Of a DNA stretch of 15,325 nucleotides, positions 6,885 to 14,995 are shown in pieces; within the stretch, counting starts at the first letter, position 1, and each line of letters opens with the position of its first letter. The position numbers and the translations under genes are program-made. The stretch covers positions 1-15,325 of the forward strand of contig JAUUVJ010000032.1 of NCBI GenBank assembly GCA_030589605.1, written 5' to 3'. The notes under the pieces were generated by a model, which was not told where the DNA came from, searched no databases, and saw only the letters and a program-made list of their open reading frames with translations. Source of the stretch: Candidatus Hodarchaeota archaeon. GTDB taxonomy: Archaea; Asgardarchaeota; Heimdallarchaeia; Hodarchaeales; Hodarchaeaceae.

Positions 6885-7017
6885 CATTTAGTCTTTCTTC
6901 CAAAAGGGTAAATAAGATATTATATCTTTAGTGAGATGAATGATCTGTTAAGGAATTAACATTAGTCATCATGCTATCGTTTGAAATAGCTTTTTATAAG
7001 TGATTAAAGGTTTTAGT

Positions 7018-7830
7018 ATGATATGGTCAGATTGGAAGAATTCATACAACAAAATAGTTGAGGAATTGGAACTTAATGCAGAAGCTGATGAAAAAACATC
7101 AGTATTGCTCGATGATTTTTTTTGTAGTATATCATCTAAGAAGAAAAATACTATTCATCAGAAATTATCCCACATTTTTCAACATCCTGTAATTATTGCA
7201 GGGGCAGGACCATCTTTAATGCAGGATTTAGCAGCAATATTAAAATCTAAAAAGATCCATAATTTACCTCTAATCTCTGTTAATGGTGCAACGACCTTGT
7301 TCAAACAGAAAGAAATTGTACCGCTAGTAGTAGTCTCAGATCTTGATGGAGATTTAACAGCGATTAAGTGGGCGATCGAAAACGGAGCTTTAACATTACT
7401 ACATGGTCATGGAGATAACGGTAACATTATATTTAATTTTCTAGACCAACATCATGATATTGTTTCAAATTATGATGTATGGGGGACCACTCAATGTAAA
7501 CCTAAACATTCCCTTTTCAATTTTGGTGGATTTACTGACGGCGATAGAGCGATTTTCATTGCATTCCACTTCCAAACCCCCTTGATTGGTTTAATTGGGT
7601 TTGATTTTGGTGTAAAAATTGGCCAATATAGTGTACTAAACTCCTCTATCAAAAAAAATGGAAAATTCAAATTGAAGAAATTTAAGATTGCCCTTGCACT
7701 ACTCGAAAAGTTTCATTCCCGTCATAGAGGAACTCGTTATAATTTGACAACTCAAGGGGAAGTAGTACCAGGGTTTCCCAAAAGAGATATTCCTACTTTC
7801 CTTAGTGAACTGGCTGAATACTACAAGTAG
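7018..7830 (+). CDS. mptE: 6-hydroxymethyl-7,8-dihydropterin pyrophosphokinase, archaeal MptE type (DUF115/COG1634)
   Basis: Family motifs are VIIAGAGPSL, ISVNGATTLF, VVVSDLDGDL and LLHGHGDNG. The track begins at GTG 7000. I prefer ATG 7018 because AAGGT (7007-7011) sits 6 nt upstream of it. Confidence 0.75.
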   Translation: MIWSDWKNSYNKIVEELELNAEADEKTSVLLDDFFCSISSKKKNTIHQKLSHIFQHPVIIAGAGPSLMQDLAAILKSKKIHNLPLISVNGATTLFKQKEIVPLVVVSDLDGDLTAIKWAIENGALTLLHGHGDNGNIIFNFLDQHHDIVSNYDVWGTTQCKPKHSLFNFGGFTDGDRAIFIAFHFQTPLIGLIGFDFGVKIGQYSVLNSSIKKNGKFKLKKFKIALALLEKFHSRHRGTRYNLTTQGEVVPGFPKRDIPTFLSELAEYYK

Positions 7831-8317
7831 CCCGATAACAAGAAGTTTCCCAAATTGTGATATTGATCCTCTCTATTCTTTGCCAAAATTCTTTTTTTTT
7901 CAGTTGATTTTGAACTTTTTCTCCTAAAAGTCTCGTTAAGGCCTCTGTTGTGACATTAGTACAGTCTAATACCTTTACCTCTTCATTAGGAATAGAATAG
8001 AAACGGATACCATATTCAATATCCAGATTATTCTCACGAATATTTATTTCCATATTGGGATTATTTGAAGGCAAAAGAACGTAGTGATCCCATTCAGAAA
8101 GGAGATTATTCAACATTTTATCTAAGTATAGAAAATCAATTATTATGTCATCTGAATCAGGCTTTCCTTCAATTTCAATTCCCACCTGATAATTATGTCC
8201 ATGCAATCCTTCTTCAATGTCATCTGAGATAAGAGCATGAGACGCACTGAAATGAGCAGCAATTTTATCAATAGCAATAGAGATTGAATTATGGCTATTC
8301 TTCTCCACGAAGTTCAA
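7802..8317 (-). CDS. COG0720 family enzyme (6-pyruvoyl-tetrahydropterin synthase / QueD-like), 171 aa
   Basis: The zinc His triad is present in FSASH...GLHGHNYQVGIEIEG. Further family motifs are IIDFLYLDKML, EWDHYVLLP and TTEALTRLL. The start is TTG at 8317 and overlaps the trxB stop as TTGA. GTG at 8308 is an alternative start. Confidence 0.8.
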   Translation of the reverse strand: MNFVEKNSHNSISIAIDKIAAHFSASHALISDDIEEGLHGHNYQVGIEIEGKPDSDDIIIDFLYLDKMLNNLLSEWDHYVLLPSNNPNMEINIRENNLDIEYGIRFYSIPNEEVKVLDCTNVTTEALTRLLGEKVQNQLKKKEFWQRIERINITIWETSCYRATCSIQPVH

Positions 8318-9276
8318 CCATCGCTAGCTTCTTCACCATACCAATCCCCACCTCTCATATCTAGAAATGCAGATATCGCTGCTGTTGTTCCTTCACCAAC
8401 AGCAATCGCAATTTGACCTTGCCCAGGAGTAATATCACCACACGCATAAACCCGAGGAAGATTGGTACGCTGATGATCATCAACTTTAATGAGACCATCT
8501 TCAGTTAATTCGACTCCAATTTTTTTTGCTAGTTCATTATTGGGGTCTATACCGATTGCGATAAAGATTGCTTTTACCCTAATTGAACTTTCTTCTCCTG
8601 TCTTTATATTCTCTATGGTAACTTTCTTCACTCCACCTGCTTCAGATCCGTGGATCTCCTTTACAACAGAATCCCAAAGAATATTTACCTTTGAATTTTC
8701 AAGAATTGCTTTTTTAAGGGAATTTTCTGCCCGTAACTGATCACGACGATGAACTAGATAGGTCTCACGAACGAGATTATCAAGGTAAAGCGCTTCTGTT
8801 ACAGCGGAATTACCTCCACCCACAACAAGTACTTTTTTTGATTTATATAATGGACCATCACAAGTAGCACAATATGAAACTCCTCTACCTTCATTTTCAT
8901 CTTCTCCTGGAACACCTAGGTGACGATGATTCGTACCAGTTGCAAGAATAACTATTTTTGATGTATAACTACCTGAGGAAGTATTTACTTCGATTGGTAC
9001 TTGATCTGTTTTAATATCTGCTACTTCTACTAATTCTTTGATTTCAGCACCAAATTTTTCAGCTTGTTTCCGTAATTTTTCAGAAAATTCAAGGCCAGAT
9101 ATTTCAGAAAAACCTGGATAGTTTTCAATAACTGGAGTTGTCGCTGCTAAACCACCTACTGCTCCCTTGTCGAGTACTAAAGTTTTCCAACCCATTCTAG
9201 ATCCATAAATCGCAGCAGCCATACCTGCTGGCCCAGCACCAACTATTATTATGTCATAATCAGAGGTAATTCCCAT
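8314..9276 (-). CDS. trxB: NADPH-dependent thioredoxin reductase (low-Mr TrxB type)
   Basis: Motifs seen are the FAD site IIIVGAGPAGMAAAIY, the redox-active CATCDG, the NADPH site VVGGGNSAVTEALYL plus HRRDQLRA, and the C-terminal FAD motif ACGDIT. The track starts at GTG 9288. ATG 9276 (MGITSDYDIIIVG) is equally or more plausible. Confidence 0.9.
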   Translation of the reverse strand: MGITSDYDIIIVGAGPAGMAAAIYGSRMGWKTLVLDKGAVGGLAATTPVIENYPGFSEISGLEFSEKLRKQAEKFGAEIKELVEVADIKTDQVPIEVNTSSGSYTSKIVILATGTNHRHLGVPGEDENEGRGVSYCATCDGPLYKSKKVLVVGGGNSAVTEALYLDNLVRETYLVHRRDQLRAENSLKKAILENSKVNILWDSVVKEIHGSEAGGVKKVTIENIKTGEESSIRVKAIFIAIGIDPNNELAKKIGVELTEDGLIKVDDHQRTNLPRVYACGDITPGQGQIAIAVGEGTTAAISAFLDMRGGDWYGEEASDG

Positions 9277-9725
9277 GTTAGCCAACACTCCGTCTATAAA
9301 TGATTAGATCATTATTGTTTATACTGGTTAAATCAAATGTTATTAAACTTTTGTGATTCGAGATACTATGCTTATAATTTGTAACAGAAGTGTTGAAAGC
9401 AAATTTGATAAATAACATATGAATAAACAAATTTGATTCAATCTTGATCCATCTTAATAGCAAAAAATAGATTTTAAAAAAATCATTAAGTATTCTCAAA
9501 TAATATTATTCTAGGTCAAAAACAAAATAAAATGAATTAGTACTAGTAAACTTACAATTGAAAGTCATTTTCTAGGTATTTACTTTCTATTTAGAGAAAT
9601 ATTTAAAGTCGCTACTAGATTGGGTAAATAGAACTTTCACTAATTTCTGGATCTCACTATTATTTGTATGTAAAAGGGTTATCGTAGTAAAAAAGCTCAT
9701 TCAGATTAAGAATGGTTGTTATATA

Positions 9726-12386
9726 ATGGAAGTAATACGATCTTCAACATCAGAAATCATTTTTCTTGTAGATTCATCAAACGCATTGATTAACGAACAA
9801 GATTTCATATTAATATCTGATTCTACTAAATCACCACTAAAAGAATATCTGGGACAAATATCAAATATTATACAGCAAAAAACTGGTGAAATCAAGGGTA
9901 ATGCTTTGGTTCTCGGAGAAATTAACCTTGATAACCACACTTTATCAAAATGTAGATTTCCGATTGCTTTGAAATCCCAGATCAGCAAGCCTCCAAAAGG
10001 ATTAGTTTCGAAAATTATTTCATATCGAGAGGAGAATGGAATTTATCTTGGTGATATAATTACTTCTGATGAGCAGAAAGAACCTTTTTTGATATCTCCC
10101 AATTTTTTAGAGCGACATGTACTTTGTGTAGCAAGTACTGGTGCAGGTAAATCTTATACAGTTGGAGTGATACTAGAAGAAGTTTTAATGAAATATTCTT
10201 CCGCTGCAGTACTTTTATTTGATATTCATAATGAATATTGGGGGTTATCTCAACCAAACGATGGAAATGAGATAGAGTCAATTACCTATGAAGATTATTC
10301 CCCGAGGGGATTCTTAGAGAATATTCTTCTTTTTGAAGAAGGATCACTAGGATTAGGAAAACATTTTGATCTAAATAAGTTACGTAGATTGTCTGACTTA
10401 ACCGCAGCCCAAGAAAATTCTCTTCTGAACATAATCGAAGAGCCTCTTTCACTAGAGGAATTAATTTCGAGAATTGAAAATTCAAATATACATAGTTCAA
10501 CACGAGACAATCTAATTTCAAAAATACATTCACTTAGGAATCTAGATTTATTTGATAAAGATCTGGATTTTCATTCTTTGATAAAACCAGGTCAAATCTC
10601 GATTATTCGTTTAGATCAATTTACAGATGAACGAAGACGGAAGATCTTAGTCAATGAAGTATTAACTCAGCTATTTGAAAAGAAGTTACATGGAGAAATC
10701 CCACGAGAACATGAGATAGTGTTGATTATTGAAGAAGCTCATAGATTTGCCACTTCAGCTGAAATTTTACCACGAATTGCACGAGAAGGACGAAAATTTG
10801 GTGTTTATGAGATACTTATCTCTCAGCGACCTGGTGACTTACCAGATAATATTATAGCCAATATGAATACACTAATAGCTTTAAGAATAAAATCTGATAA
10901 AGATATCAATAAAATTCGGTTAATGGAAGGAATTAGTACCGATACTGTTTCAGTATTGCCTCATCTCATTAGGGGAGAAGCTTTACTTGTAGGATTACAA
11001 GGAACGACTCACCGTCCAATAAAGATCCATGTACGGCCCCGCTTATCAAAACATATAGATCCCCAAGAAGATGAAATGCCTGAAGATATCCCTCGATATG
11101 GTCATATTTCAGATCAGATTAGTGAAACAACTGATGTATCAAAAATTGAAACATTAAAAACTGAAGATATCGATCAAGAAACCGATATTACTCTTTCTAC
11201 CGAGATTGAACCCTTCAGTTTTAAAGATCTTACAAACTTACTTTCATGTCAACATGTTCTAATCCTTCAAAAACATTCAGGTATATGTTTGTTTGGTATT
11301 GGAGCTACTATGTTTAAAATCGATCCACAATTGATATCTGGTTTTTTATCCGCAATTTCTGGGCTTTTTAGTGAACTAAAAAGTCAAACTGCTATAAAAG
11401 AGCGTACAATTATAAGAACATTTAGAGAAGAAATTGGAGACCGTGCTTTTGAGATTATTACAGTAGAAGGGACTTACTCGGCTACTGCCATCATTCACGA
11501 TCGCACTCCAAAATATTTTTCACATCTAAAGAAAAGAGTGAGAACTTTTGTGTACGCTTTTGAAACGAAATTCTTAAGTCATCTTAAAGGATTTTCTGGT
11601 GTACTTGACGATTTTGACTCTGCTAAACAACTGTTAGATGAATACCTTGGTATAGCTTTAACAACTCCTCTTCAAATCAACTTAAACTATCGAAAAGAGA
11701 ATATCACTTCTTATTCAGATTTATATGAAATTATTGAAAAACAATTGGATCAACTAGCTACTGGTGAGGGAATCTTTGTTGAAGAAATGGTAAATCAATG
11801 CATTCTAGACTCTAATTATAATCATCGTGAAATAACAGAAGGAATTATCTCATTTCTGAAAGATAAAATACTCATACTCGTTGATCAAAATCGAAAATTA
11901 CCGCCTTTTTCATCCCAGTTATTGTATGATGTAGAAGAGAAAATACCAGAACCAGAAAAAATAGAAGAAACTGAACTAGATTCTATACAGTCATTTTCAG
12001 ATGAAATCGAACAGAAAAATCATTCTAACGCTATTTCAGTAGAATTAACAGAAAGTAATATGAAATGGTTTTCAGATGTAATACCTGAAATCTCTGAATC
12101 CCCCCTTCCTGACTCTTTAAAGCAAGATATATTGGAGCGAGACATAATGTTTGAGTCAAATTGTAGAATTAAAACAAGTTCGGTCAGAGCGGAAATATTT
12201 TCCATGTCTGATTTAACACGTTGGGCTGAACTTATGACTCAGAGAGGATTTATTACACAATCAAAAACAAAAAACCCGCTTAATGGAATAAAAATCGCAT
12301 TGAAAGCTGAATTTACTACTATTATGTGCTCAATTGCGTTATTGAAGAATGGAGATTTTCTTACAATACTAGCAGAAACAATATGA
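9726..12386 (+). CDS. HerA/FtsK-superfamily (DUF87-type) P-loop ATPase with a 440-aa C-terminal extension: acidic linker, longin/roadblock-like module, possible winged helix and an unknown C-terminal domain
   Basis: The N-terminal region of about 100 aa is compatible with a HAS barrel. Walker A is LCVASTGAGKSYT (nt 10131-10154, checked). Walker B is EIVLIIEEAHRF. Other core motifs are GRKFGVYEILISQRPGDL and TLIALRI. The core ends near aa 440 (IKIHVRPRLSKH). Residues 441-495 are D/E/T-rich. The extension has no TM helices. Confidence 0.85.
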   Translation: MEVIRSSTSEIIFLVDSSNALINEQDFILISDSTKSPLKEYLGQISNIIQQKTGEIKGNALVLGEINLDNHTLSKCRFPIALKSQISKPPKGLVSKIISYREENGIYLGDIITSDEQKEPFLISPNFLERHVLCVASTGAGKSYTVGVILEEVLMKYSSAAVLLFDIHNEYWGLSQPNDGNEIESITYEDYSPRGFLENILLFEEGSLGLGKHFDLNKLRRLSDLTAAQENSLLNIIEEPLSLEELISRIENSNIHSSTRDNLISKIHSLRNLDLFDKDLDFHSLIKPGQISIIRLDQFTDERRRKILVNEVLTQLFEKKLHGEIPREHEIVLIIEEAHRFATSAEILPRIAREGRKFGVYEILISQRPGDLPDNIIANMNTLIALRIKSDKDINKIRLMEGISTDTVSVLPHLIRGEALLVGLQGTTHRPIKIHVRPRLSKHIDPQEDEMPEDIPRYGHISDQISETTDVSKIETLKTEDIDQETDITLSTEIEPFSFKDLTNLLSCQHVLILQKHSGICLFGIGATMFKIDPQLISGFLSAISGLFSELKSQTAIKERTIIRTFREEIGDRAFEIITVEGTYSATAIIHDRTPKYFSHLKKRVRTFVYAFETKFLSHLKGFSGVLDDFDSAKQLLDEYLGIALTTPLQINLNYRKENITSYSDLYEIIEKQLDQLATGEGIFVEEMVNQCILDSNYNHREITEGIISFLKDKILILVDQNRKLPPFSSQLLYDVEEKIPEPEKIEETELDSIQSFSDEIEQKNHSNAISVELTESNMKWFSDVIPEISESPLPDSLKQDILERDIMFESNCRIKTSSVRAEIFSMSDLTRWAELMTQRGFITQSKTKNPLNGIKIALKAEFTTIMCSIALLKNGDFLTILAETI
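11214..11645 (+). other. Longin/roadblock-like module inside the HerA-type protein (aa 497-640)
   Basis: The predicted pattern is beta-beta-alpha-beta-beta-beta-alpha: HVLILQK, ICLFGIG, DPQLISGFLSAISGLFSELK, IIRTFREEIG, AFEIITVEG, YSATAIIH, KKRVRTFVYAFETKFLSHL. The assignment comes from sequence pattern only, with no structure prediction. Confidence 0.45.
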
Positions 12387-12424
12387 AAGGAACGGTATTT
12401 TATAACATTTAATGCAAGTTTCAC

Positions 12425-14995
12425 TCATTCAGTTGTAAATAATTCTTTCACGATTGGAATATCGTCATAAAAAACTTCGAGATCACCCAACCACATAGGT
12501 AGGGTCTTTCCATGTCTTATTTCGAAATCTGTTAAGAAGGATGTAAGTTTTTTACGTAATTCAGTAGATGTAGTATCTGCAAATATTGCTGCGAAAACAT
12601 ATTTTGCATATTCTATCGTCAGAACGACATCTCCATGATCAATTGTTTTTAATAATTGCTCACTTCTGACTGCTTCTTTTGCAAATGAGGTAATAGCAGA
12701 GAAAAGTCCCGCAACTAAAGCTGGTTCGACTTGTGATTCTGCAGCAAATGTGTGTGATAATAAAGCTCTTCCATCTAACATCATCACATGTAAAGAGTCG
12801 ATTGTAACTTCTTTGAATGAATAAGAAAATTCCTTATGAAACAATGTAAATACTTGATTAAAAGGAACTTCGAGATCAAATGTTAATTCATCTAATATTT
12901 CCTGAATTCGAGTAGTTTTTAGCCCAGTTACAAGATTTAATTCCTCTAACGATCTTTCTTTACTAACAATTGCTTGATACAGCTGTGAACCATTTTCGAT
13001 GTTAGCTGCCTTTTCATCTATTTGTTGTTTTAATGAAACTTCTTCAATTTGAGAGGCACTAATTAAAATGATTTTAGATTTTCTCTCCAGTTCACTTTTA
13101 GAGGGTAAATGAGACATATCAGAATAAATTGTTTTGTATTGTGTTTTTTCTTCCCCAACCTGAGTTTTTGCTTTAAATTTGCGTCTAGCTAAAAACAGGA
13201 CAGCTCCATATGTCATTAAAATCGCAAAGGGGTGTAATATATTGTATGGAATTGATAAAATACCCAAAAACTGACCTCCAGTTCCTTTCCAAATAACTGG
13301 AATTTCAATTAGCTGTGGAACAATAAATTGGATCTGGTTGAAAGTACCTTCTTTCCATACTGATGATAACCAATTTGTTGTAACTGTTGTTCCTGTGATA
13401 CCAGCAAAAAGGTTTGCTACTACTGTAATAAATGGAGCGATTAAAATTTCTCCATCGTATTGGGGAAAAGGAGAATCGAAATTTAATAATGTGTACCATT
13501 GATCGTTGTAATAATTGAAAATCAAAAAACTCACTAAGAACATGGTTATATATATCACTACAGTTGAACCTATAAGACTCCAATTCCATCTTCGGATGAA
13601 TAAGATTAATAATGCACAAAGAATAAAACTAGCGAAGTTTTGAGTTAACCAGAAGAAAGATCTGTAATGAACAGTTTCTAAATAAATAAACATACCTTTC
13701 ATAAACACCCTGTATGTAAGAAAACCAAAAGCCAGTAAAATACCAAAAACTATACCTGCTAAAACAGATTTAGCGTAATTCTTTAAATCAAACTGTTCAA
13801 ACACTACTCTCAGATTCTTAAATGATTCAATTAGTTTTATTAGCAAAAATATCGAGAAAGGTTCAAAAATGTCTAAGAACAACACGAAGAATATTGATAC
13901 CATTATAAAATACACAACAAAGTATGAAATTACGAAGATTTGATCAGAATATTGAACTAAGAACAGAATAACAGCTAATCCTGACATAAAGGCTCCTACA
14001 GTTGATAAACTCTGAACCATGGTAATATATAATTGATTTCCTAAGAATTTTCCCTTTCGAGATAAATGACTAGCTTTAATGAGATACACACAGAATACAA
14101 TAGAGGCAATGTATGCAAAGAAAATTTCTAAGAACCAACCCATTGTTGTTCCTTGTAGTAAACTTGGGTTTTCAGTTTCTCCAAGTAACTGAAGAATGGT
14201 CATAAGAAGAAATAGTGTAATCGGCAGAATAGCAATAAGGACTTTCAAAAGTTCTTTTTCACTATCCCAATTCTTTTTCTTTACACTCGTCATAATTTCC
14301 TGAAAAGGGGAAACTTCCATTTCAAACTGTATCTCTTGGAGTCGTTGAGTGATACCCCGTACTTCATTCAATTGCTGTTTAAAATCATCTGTATCGGTTT
14401 CTATTTCTTTAATATTCAATGCAATTTCTTGGGCTTTCTCTTCGGATGCTTCTTTTAATTGTTTTTTGAGTACTTTAATCTCACTTTGGTTACGCTTGAT
14501 AAATCGTTTGAGAGGTTTTTTGTTATTTCTTTTTTCACCCCAGGTCTGGTAAAGTATTATTATCATTGATAAGAAAGGGGATATCCCAAAAACAAATCCT
14601 AAAACAATTATAGGATAATTTAGATAATTAACTAGGGAATTAATTAGATGTTGAACTAAATATCTGATAATAATGGGTATTCCAGGGATTGTTGCATTAG
14701 CAGGACTTACCGTTGTATCCCATACAGTGCTGAAGCCATTAGTACCTGGAATGGGATAATACTCCTGAGTCATGTATTGATTTGGATTCGGTACAAAAGA
14801 GTTTATTATACTTGGAAAAACGAAGTATCCAATATAAAAAACGATAAAACCTATATAAAATCGATTAAAGATGACTGCAATGAGATTTTCGTCTTTTTTA
14901 CGGGTATATAGATAAGGAAAGAATATGATGATCAAAGGTAATAAAGTTACAATAAGGGAGAATATTATATTTATTGGATCGTCAAATAGTGCCAT
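12425..14995 (-). CDS. Large polytopic membrane protein (about 12 TM helices) with a cytoplasmic K/E-rich coiled-coil loop and a cytoplasmic C-terminal tail carrying a possible winged helix and a longin/roadblock-like module; no recognisable family
   Basis: The ATG is at 14995. Hydrophobic helices run through aa 8-610. Positive-inside residues follow TM1 (TRKKDEN), TM3 (KRNNKKPLKRFIKR) and the last TM (ARRKFKAK). The loop at aa 62-120 has an N-A-T sequon and is predicted to be outside. Residues 153-248 are a charged, heptad-like segment. Residues 610-856 are soluble. Confidence 0.8.
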   Translation of the reverse strand: MALFDDPINIIFSLIVTLLPLIIIFFPYLYTRKKDENLIAVIFNRFYIGFIVFYIGYFVFPSIINSFVPNPNQYMTQEYYPIPGTNGFSTVWDTTVSPANATIPGIPIIIRYLVQHLINSLVNYLNYPIIVLGFVFGISPFLSMIIILYQTWGEKRNNKKPLKRFIKRNQSEIKVLKKQLKEASEEKAQEIALNIKEIETDTDDFKQQLNEVRGITQRLQEIQFEMEVSPFQEIMTSVKKKNWDSEKELLKVLIAILPITLFLLMTILQLLGETENPSLLQGTTMGWFLEIFFAYIASIVFCVYLIKASHLSRKGKFLGNQLYITMVQSLSTVGAFMSGLAVILFLVQYSDQIFVISYFVVYFIMVSIFFVLFLDIFEPFSIFLLIKLIESFKNLRVVFEQFDLKNYAKSVLAGIVFGILLAFGFLTYRVFMKGMFIYLETVHYRSFFWLTQNFASFILCALLILFIRRWNWSLIGSTVVIYITMFLVSFLIFNYYNDQWYTLLNFDSPFPQYDGEILIAPFITVVANLFAGITGTTVTTNWLSSVWKEGTFNQIQFIVPQLIEIPVIWKGTGGQFLGILSIPYNILHPFAILMTYGAVLFLARRKFKAKTQVGEEKTQYKTIYSDMSHLPSKSELERKSKIILISASQIEEVSLKQQIDEKAANIENGSQLYQAIVSKERSLEELNLVTGLKTTRIQEILDELTFDLEVPFNQVFTLFHKEFSYSFKEVTIDSLHVMMLDGRALLSHTFAAESQVEPALVAGLFSAITSFAKEAVRSEQLLKTIDHGDVVLTIEYAKYVFAAIFADTTSTELRKKLTSFLTDFEIRHGKTLPMWLGDLEVFYDDIPIVKELFTTE
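12428..12826 (-). other. Longin/roadblock-like module at the C-terminus of the membrane protein (aa 724-856)
   Basis: SYSFKEV, LHVMMLD, ALLSHTF, EPALVAGLFSAITSFAKEAV, LLKTIDHG, VVLTIEYA, YVFAAIFA, ELRKKLTSFLTDFEIRHG. The order of elements and the key motif are the same as in the HerA-type protein. Confidence 0.45.

Follow-up and report, generated by a model that had tools for sequence, protein, structure and literature searches.

Do two neighbouring genes of a Hodarchaeota genome, one for a HerA/FtsK-superfamily ATPase and one for a membrane protein, encode copies of the same domain, and if so, what might this domain do? The question arises from a 15,325-nucleotide stretch at the start of contig JAUUVJ010000032.1 of Candidatus Hodarchaeota archaeon (the window), which is AT-rich (about 33% GC) and whose proteins have their nearest relatives in metagenome-assembled genomes (MAGs) labelled Hodarchaeales, Hodarchaeota or Heimdallarchaeota. 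In the right-hand third of the window, two open reading frames (ORFs) converge on a 38-bp intergenic gap. The ATPase gene (9726-12386, + strand; 886 aa) was identified by its ORF, its translation and the Pfam domain DUF87, and the gene for the polytopic membrane protein (12425-14995, - strand; 856 aa) by its ORF and translation. The original prediction placed a related longin/roadblock-like module in both proteins within the interval 11214-12826, which begins at codon 497 of the ATPase and reaches to about codon 724 of the opposite-strand membrane protein, spanning both modules, the ATPase C-terminus and the gap. The first copy occupies aa 497-645 of the ATPase (11214-11660, +) and the second aa 722-856, the C-terminus of the membrane protein (12428-12832, -). 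The best explanation of the data presented below is that both genes encode one cytoplasmic domain of about 140 residues, predicted to adopt a longin-type fold, which belongs to a large and predominantly Asgard family.

The two segments are homologous. Aligned directly by BLASTP, they show 26% identity over 145 columns (E = 9e-8), and when the whole ATPase was compared with the whole membrane protein (E = 1e-4), the module was the sole significant segment. Two independent profiles, for which homologues had been gathered separately with the membrane-protein C-terminus and with the full-length ATPase, were aligned by hhalign over 121 columns with a probability of 98.6% (E = 5.1e-16). As negative controls, other domain pairs involving the ATPase C-terminal domain, the helix-rich stretches and the module family gave probabilities of 0.1-1.6%. 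A hidden Markov model (HMM) constructed from the membrane-protein modules only matched the position of the module in all of the 55 ATPase relatives listed (per-sequence E of 3e-13 to 6e-7). When the ATPase module alone served as query, a word-indexed search for homologues yielded no match at E<=0.01; the ATPase orthologues were obtained by searching with the full-length ATPase. The prediction of a related module in both neighbours is thus borne out by BLASTP, HMM and hhalign. The peptides on which it was based are present at ATPase aa 495-553 (PFSFKD...SELK) and at membrane-protein aa 725-776 (YSFKEV...KEAV), and the profile alignment that had been proposed as its check turned out strongly significant, not null. 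Both copies are well conserved: among orthologues, the ATPase module equals the catalytic core in conservation, with a column identity of about 0.8, and the membrane-protein module is very strongly conserved, being 57-100% identical among close homologues.

The structure of each copy was modelled with AlphaFold2, using aa 490-648 of the ATPase with a 29-sequence alignment (predicted local distance difference test score, pLDDT, of 78.9) and the C-terminal 216 residues of the membrane protein (pLDDT of 90.8). The order of elements that had been read from the letters, β-β-α-β-β-β-α, is present in both models as β-β-α-β-β-β-α-α. The predicted module is a five-stranded sheet with one helix on one face and two C-terminal helices on the other. 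It is preceded by a short helix in the ATPase model and by a helix-rich stretch in the membrane-protein model, which is without the N-terminal helix of the module and has its strands at model residues 92-99, 104-109, 144-146, 151-156 and 160-166 and its helices at 118-135, 171-187 and 199-213. In a Foldseek search of PDB with the membrane-protein model, all 50 matches listed were longin or roadblock proteins with a probability of 1.00. The longin matches, over about 125 columns, included the AP-1/2/3 σ chains and μ N-terminal domains, COPI ζ/δ, Sec22b, Bet5/Trs23 of TRAPP and Mon1-Ccz1. Template-modelling (TM) scores, normalised to the target, were 0.57-0.72 for the AP σ chains at a root-mean-square deviation (rmsd) of 3.6-4.2 Å, 0.66 for Sec22b and 0.59 for Bet5/Trs23. 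The roadblock matches covered a shorter core and included dynein LC7 as well as LAMTOR subunits, MglB and Roadblock2 of Prometheoarchaeum MK-D1, the latter three with 93-102 columns, target-normalised TM of 0.46-0.57 and rmsd of 3.4-4.4 Å. The ATPase model matched SEDL/TRAPPC2, the VAMP7 longin domain, SRX, AP σ and Ragulator subunits. Its longin matches had TM of 0.41-0.54 and rmsd of about 5 Å, and its global likeness to longins is borderline (SEDL, 0.49/0.54; VAMP7, 0.49/0.50).

Roadblock proteins have helices at both the N- and C-terminal ends, and in longins the N-terminal helix has been lost and a second C-terminal helix gained (Tran et al. 2024, PMC10933270). According to this distinction the module belongs to the longin type, because it has two C-terminal helices. 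The roadblock topology, an N-terminal helix with at most one C-terminal helix, is found in neither copy, and the longin order β1-β2-α1-β3-β4-β5-α2-α3 is found in both, with an extra short helix before β1 in the ATPase copy. A longin-type fold within the roadblock/longin superfamily is therefore supported by the models, longin fitting better than roadblock. The predicted longin/roadblock-like fold is upheld by AlphaFold2 and Foldseek, with the longin order of elements, and the structural comparison indicated for it found matches to MglB, LC7, SRX, SEDL and longin folds. The suggested resemblance of the central helix motif to that of sedlin finds no support at the sequence level, the identity in structural alignments being 8-20% and no Pfam match being found at E<=10.

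The module is not confined to these two proteins. When an eight-sequence profile was compared with 1.84 billion representative proteins, counting clusters at 50% identity, the family comprised at least 2,246 clusters at E<=1e-3 and 400 at E<=1e-10, with proteins from 100 to more than 3,000 residues in length. An organism label was carried by 11 of the 20 clusters looked up, and 10 of these 11 were Asgard (Promethearchaeota, Hodarchaeota/Hodarchaeales, Lokiarchaeota and Atabeyarchaeia). The remaining one, labelled Methanomassiliicoccales, is P0288 in the cluster of P0270, a protein of about 1,960 aa with two module copies; the label may indicate either that the family is not strictly confined to Asgard archaea or that the MAG was mis-binned. 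Two or three tandemly spaced copies were observed in single polypeptides (P0188, 2171 aa; P0270, 1962 aa; P0265, 424 aa), which would fit intramolecular pairing of the domains. In 62 members scanned, no Pfam match fell over the module itself, and no longin-type family was detected at E<=0.001. The module escapes the sequence models of Pfam, NCBIfam and PDB, so that pipelines built on those libraries presumably leave the family without annotation. Conservation is highest in the motif [DE]P-x-L[VI][SA]G-[FLM]-[FL]-[ST]-A-I-[ST]-[SG]-[FL] on the central helix.

Members of the family are found in many contexts, most often with the module downstream of a predicted transmembrane helix. Using hydropathy-predicted helices, we determined the distance to the nearest transmembrane helix upstream of the module for 127 members of at least 250 aa. 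This helix ended within 60 residues of the module in 73 members, at 61-200 residues in 39 and at more than 200 residues in four; 11 members had none. A recurrent architecture consists of a signal peptide or transmembrane helix, a large ectodomain, a transmembrane helix, the module, and a cytoplasmic tail or nucleoside triphosphatase (NTPase) domain. The co-occurring domains include KaiC-like ATPases (with DUF835 and DUF7504), MFS transporters, and bacterial Ig-like, CARDB and macroglobulin-type ectodomains. In one member (P0252), a Ras-family GTPase domain (Pfam E = 2.2e-50) at the N-terminus is combined with a C-terminal module, and another is a caspase with a weak MP1/LAMTOR3-like match. The ATPase copy is closest to the subgroup in which the module follows a transmembrane helix, including the helix L-x-D-L-x-N-x-x-H, which in that subgroup normally comes after a polybasic stop-transfer stretch. 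The best non-ATPase matches of an ATPase-module HMM (70-97 bits) came from single-pass receptor-like proteins, and the representative of the neighbouring membrane protein ranked only 85th of 132 with 36 bits. On account of this rank, the two copies of the window are regarded as distant cousins, and not as the products of a recent duplication or as a matched pair. P0214, considered as an ATPase orthologue with a hydrophobic linker, was rejected as an unrelated protein in which a transmembrane helix precedes the module.

By analogy with longin and roadblock domains in general, the module may act as a platform for dimerisation or for docking of a partner. Its general role would likely be to couple membrane proteins to cytoplasmic NTPases, because in receptor-like and transporter proteins the modules follow transmembrane helices, and in other proteins they are joined to P-loop NTPases of the KaiC, HerA and Ras types. 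As part of a soluble HerA-type ATPase, the module would recruit the ring, and hence the motor, to a membrane-anchored member of the family, and the neighbouring membrane protein is a candidate for this partner. We assign a probability of roughly 0.6 to this docking role. The central helix, which carries the conserved motif of the family, is the element through which roadblock proteins dimerise (Tran et al. 2024, PMC10933270).

Comparison with known systems places the module near two groups of proteins. Eukaryotic longins (AP σ/μ, COPI ζ/δ, Sec22b/VAMP7/Ykt6, TRAPPC1/2/4, Mon1-Ccz1 and SRX) share its order of elements and its five-stranded sheet sandwiched by helices, and they constitute the best global structural match (about 125 columns, target-normalised TM of 0.5-0.72, rmsd of 3.6-5 Å), but without detectable sequence similarity (Pfam at E<=10; 8-20% identity). 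We know of no eukaryotic longin in the contexts of the module, that is, after a transmembrane helix or fused to a HerA- or KaiC-like ATPase, an MFS protein or a caspase. The roadblock/LC7 proteins (MglB, LAMTOR2/3/4/5, dynein LC7, the Asgard roadblocks of Tran et al. 2024 and MK-D1 Roadblock2, 9jq8) have the core sheet and central helix in common with the module over about 95 columns (target-normalised TM of 0.45-0.57), and the short helix before β1 of the ATPase copy sits where these proteins have their N-terminal helix. The module differs from them in its two C-terminal helices, in the lack of an N-terminal helix in the membrane-protein copy, and in that Pfam Robl_LC7 (PF03259) is not matched at E<=10. 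Furthermore, most roadblock proteins are small and free-standing, but the module forms part of large multidomain proteins.

The expansion of such folds in Asgard archaea, as assumed in the original prediction, is in line with the passages of Liu et al. (bioRxiv 10.1101/2020.10.19.343400) used here, which report about 130 Asgard clusters of orthologous genes (asCOGs) for the Roadblock/longin superfamily, including an NPRL2-like longin, with many lineage-specific fusions to signalling domains and much domain shuffling. Compared by description, the module family fits this expansion. The same passages of Liu et al. make no mention of a fusion to a HerA-type ATPase or of placement after a transmembrane helix. 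A literature search turned up neither a HerA-longin fusion nor a longin module adjoining the membrane. What is added to the original prediction is the size of an unannotated family and its near-membrane, often NTPase-joined context; the fold superfamily and its expansion in Asgard archaea were already known.

The arrangement of the two genes was compared among Hodarchaeales. In all 18 loci, which span ATPase identities of 49-74%, an orthologue of the membrane-protein gene lies downstream of the ATPase gene in convergent orientation, directly adjacent in 16 of the 18 and usually at a spacing of 13-110 bp. A scan of the 38-bp gap for a terminator or promoter gave nothing exceeding the shuffled background. 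Outside the targeted genes, only one weak match to the module was detected in about 294 kb of sampled Asgard loci; because genes with the module are so sparse, two carriers side by side are not expected by chance. The neighbourhood thus argues, weakly, for a functional pair.

Several observations weigh against the proposed longin-type docking platform. With respect to the fold, Pfam searches with both modules at E<=10 detected no longin, roadblock or any other family, PDB sequence-profile searches with the ATPase module, the membrane-protein C-terminus and the ATPase C-terminus gave no longin or roadblock match at E<=10, and no NCBIfam model recognises the module, so that the assignment to a fold class is purely structural. 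The Foldseek E-values are only 2e-4 to 1e-2, at identities of 8-20%, and the pLDDT of the ATPase model is about 49-64 precisely on the conserved central helix. In addition, the four lowest-E matches of this model are bacteriophytochrome PAS-GAF-PHY chains (E of 4e-4 to 7e-4); these were discounted because of their TM of 0.28 and rmsd of 12-14 Å. With respect to the locus, the two genes are convergent and therefore not co-transcribed. In two loci only, a 467-aa gene with a radical-SAM-like cysteine motif (GCSWRKCRFCS) splits the pair (L003, 5425-6828, -; L008, 8247-9650, -). The pair forms part of a seven-gene block, in the order MutS-like, metallo-β-lactamase, MptE, PTPS, thioredoxin-reductase-like, ATPase and membrane protein, whose gene order is the same in all loci that extend far enough, indicating that the adjacency is a single inherited arrangement. 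Two ATPase paralogues of about 33% identity keep the module without the membrane partner, being followed downstream by a module-less convergent gene in one case and by the start of an MFS gene in the other, and no HerA-like gene lies beside either of two remoter homologues of the membrane protein.

Four other explanations were weighed. Each module could serve the homo-oligomerisation or autoregulation of its own protein, the two products never interacting and their adjacency being accidental. This is a real possibility, somewhat short of an even chance, and it is in agreement with the synteny of the whole block, the distant relationship of the two copies, the loss of the partner gene in distant relatives, and the presence of the family in many unrelated architectures. 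It does not readily account for the side-by-side location of two carriers of so sparse a module, although that pairing represents a single evolutionary event.

The opposite view, in line with the original prediction of an interaction or regulatory interface of the pair, is that the two modules bind each other as a pair-specific heterodimer, the membrane protein anchoring a HerA-type hexamer in the manner of a split FtsK-like or Ced-like membrane translocase; this appears doubtful to us. The convergent pair with its short spacing in all 18 loci, the fact that longin and roadblock domains usually occur in pairs (PMC10933270), and the weak NCBIfam likeness of the ATPase to DNA-translocating HerA-like ATPases including CedD are consistent with it. 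However, the module of the neighbour is far from the best match of the ATPase copy, the adjacency is confounded by the block-wide synteny, distant relatives of either gene occur without the other as neighbour, and transcription is convergent with a gene inserted in two loci. Moreover, the module is generic and very widespread, and not peculiar to this pair.

Alternatively, as the original prediction also suggested for a GTPase encoded elsewhere, the module might bind and regulate, as a GTPase-activating protein or a guanine nucleotide exchange factor, such a small GTPase, which in turn would control the ATPase and the membrane protein. Points in favour of such a GTPase platform are the Ras-family fusion in P0252, the Arf/Ras-like GTPase genes located one to three called genes upstream of two distant ATPase paralogues, and the GTPase regulators Mon1-Ccz1, MglB, LAMTOR and TRAPP subunits among the structural neighbours. 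We nevertheless consider it unlikely. Comparison of the window ORFs with Pfam detected no GTPase gene, none was noted in the conserved block, and a GTPase domain was found in one of the 62 members scanned, KaiC-like ATPases, MFS proteins and ectodomains being commoner. AP σ/μ and COPI ζ/δ, which head the structural matches, do not themselves regulate GTPases. As small GTPases are abundant in Asgard archaea, with 94 asCOGs in the parts of Liu et al. (bioRxiv 10.1101/2020.10.19.343400) used here, GTPase genes near the paralogues can be due to chance. Lastly, a small-molecule sensor of the GAF/PAS type, which the phytochrome matches of the ATPase model would favour, is very improbable, given that those matches are far poorer in TM and rmsd than the longins of the same list and that neither GAF nor PAS appears among the 50 matches listed for the higher-confidence membrane-protein model, no global match to GAF having been obtained.

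If the family is a docking platform, it would offer a tractable handle on how Asgard membrane proteins are linked to cytoplasmic motors and switches. Longin and roadblock domains belong to the core of eukaryotic complexes for membrane trafficking and GTPase regulation, and their expansion in Asgard archaea is a main argument for an archaeal origin of this machinery. One might go further and regard the longin-type module just inside the membrane as a previously undescribed Asgard-wide system that couples receptors and transporters to P-loop NTPases, the longins of AP σ/μ and COPI ζ/δ descending from or paralleling that role, and which at this locus mounts the HerA-type motor on the polytopic neighbour; in this full form the proposal is quite unlikely. 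For the locus itself the gain is modest, about 140 residues being explained in each of two otherwise uncharacterised proteins, together with one candidate interaction.

The remaining parts of the ATPase were classified as follows. The P-loop core (aa 107-436; 10044-11033, +) includes the DUF87 match at aa 107-314 and an AAA_10 match at aa 133-436, and the Walker A sequence GAGKS is intact at aa 139-143. The match to DUF87 (PF01935, the HerA central domain) has an E-value of 1.2e-18 and a score of 68.5 bits against a cut-off of 23.2, and the core is the best-conserved stretch across orthologues. About 56 full-length relatives, mostly 48-100% identical, were found in Hodarchaeales/Heimdall MAGs. 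NCBIfam gave HerA-type matches only, all confined to the core and far below the respective cut-offs: 111.7 bits against 970 for the HerA equivalog NF040819, 71.1 bits against 850 for NF042944, and a weak similarity to models of DNA-translocating HerA-like ATPases including CedD (E = 8e-19). The protein is thus a member of the HerA/FtsK superfamily, as judged by DUF87 above the Pfam threshold and by Walker A, and does not classify as a DNA-repair HerA (HerA-NurA) or as a component of an anti-phage HerA system; no NurA, Sir2 or DUF4297 partner was found among the window ORFs. In comparison with known HerA/FtsK ATPases (HerA-NurA, Ced DNA import and anti-phage HerA), the DUF87/HerA models match the N-terminal 440 aa with Walker A intact. 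A canonical HerA of about 500 aa covers 35-50% of the ATPase and is without its 450-aa C-terminal extension, which comprises the module, a helix-rich stretch and a C-terminal domain.

Between the core and the module lies an acidic linker (aa 455-495; 11088-11210, +), in which column conservation falls to 0.17-0.43 compared with about 0.8 on either side. The helix-rich stretch 3' of the module (aa 650-725; 11673-11900, +) is conserved in orthologues and gave no Pfam or PDB sequence match; its pattern of residues resembles that of winged helix-turn-helix (wHTH) domains, making it a possible winged helix. The C-terminal domain (aa 785-886; 12078-12383, +) shows a conservation of 0.5-0.7 and an α/β pattern, and is without Pfam or PDB-sequence matches. 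Neither region is a further copy of the module: hhalign comparison with the module family gave a probability of 0.2% for the C-terminal domain, and the helix-rich stretch was rejected by the same type of control run (0.1-1.6% across such runs). In one locus (L016, 1276-3705, +) the ATPase orthologue is interrupted, with an ORF of 810 aa, a module matched only partly and a tblastn match to the first half only, reflecting a frameshift or pseudogene, or else a fault in the assembly.

In the membrane protein, a Kyte-Doolittle scan placed about 11 hydrophobic segments within aa 1-536, and Pfam gave no informative match. A long and highly charged loop (KRNNKKPLKRFIKRNQSEIKVLKKQLKEASEEKAQEIALNIKEIE...) is located between hydrophobic segments 3 and 4 (aa ~150-245; 14260-14550, -) and probably forms a coiled coil; an NAD_binding_6 match of Pfam on this loop was sub-threshold and was rejected as spurious. 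The stretch before the module (aa 653-720; 12836-13039, -) is helix-rich and probably winged-helix-like, as judged from the AlphaFold2 model, in which residues 13-25, 29-38, 43-50 and 54-66 are helical and residues 76-80 form a strand (pLDDT >90), and from weak PDB profile matches to wHTH proteins and regulators at the non-significant E of 0.2-1.1. Pfam at E<=10 yielded no relevant match for this stretch. The possible winged helices beside both modules therefore fared unequally, the one in the membrane protein being plausible and the one in the ATPase resting on its wHTH-like pattern. The two helix-rich stretches were also considered as homologues of each other, and this was rejected with an hhalign probability of 1.6%.

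The upstream genes of the block are located at 3274-9288 of the window, and their order is fixed in all of the loci L001-L018 that extend far enough. Their products are a MutS-domain-V/HhH protein, a metallo-β-lactamase, MptE-like and PTPS-like pterin enzymes, and a thioredoxin-reductase-like flavoprotein. A thioredoxin-reductase-like gene is also found upstream of the two distant ATPase paralogues, directly in L020 (1616-3713) and two called genes away in L019 (3135-5151), echoing the neighbour in the window; in both cases the next called gene beyond it encodes an Arf/Ras-like small GTPase. At the left end of the window (158-2974) are genes for a JAB/MPN-domain protein, a metallo-β-lactamase of the β-CASP/RMMBL ribonuclease type and an NfeD-like protein, which are unrelated to the modules.

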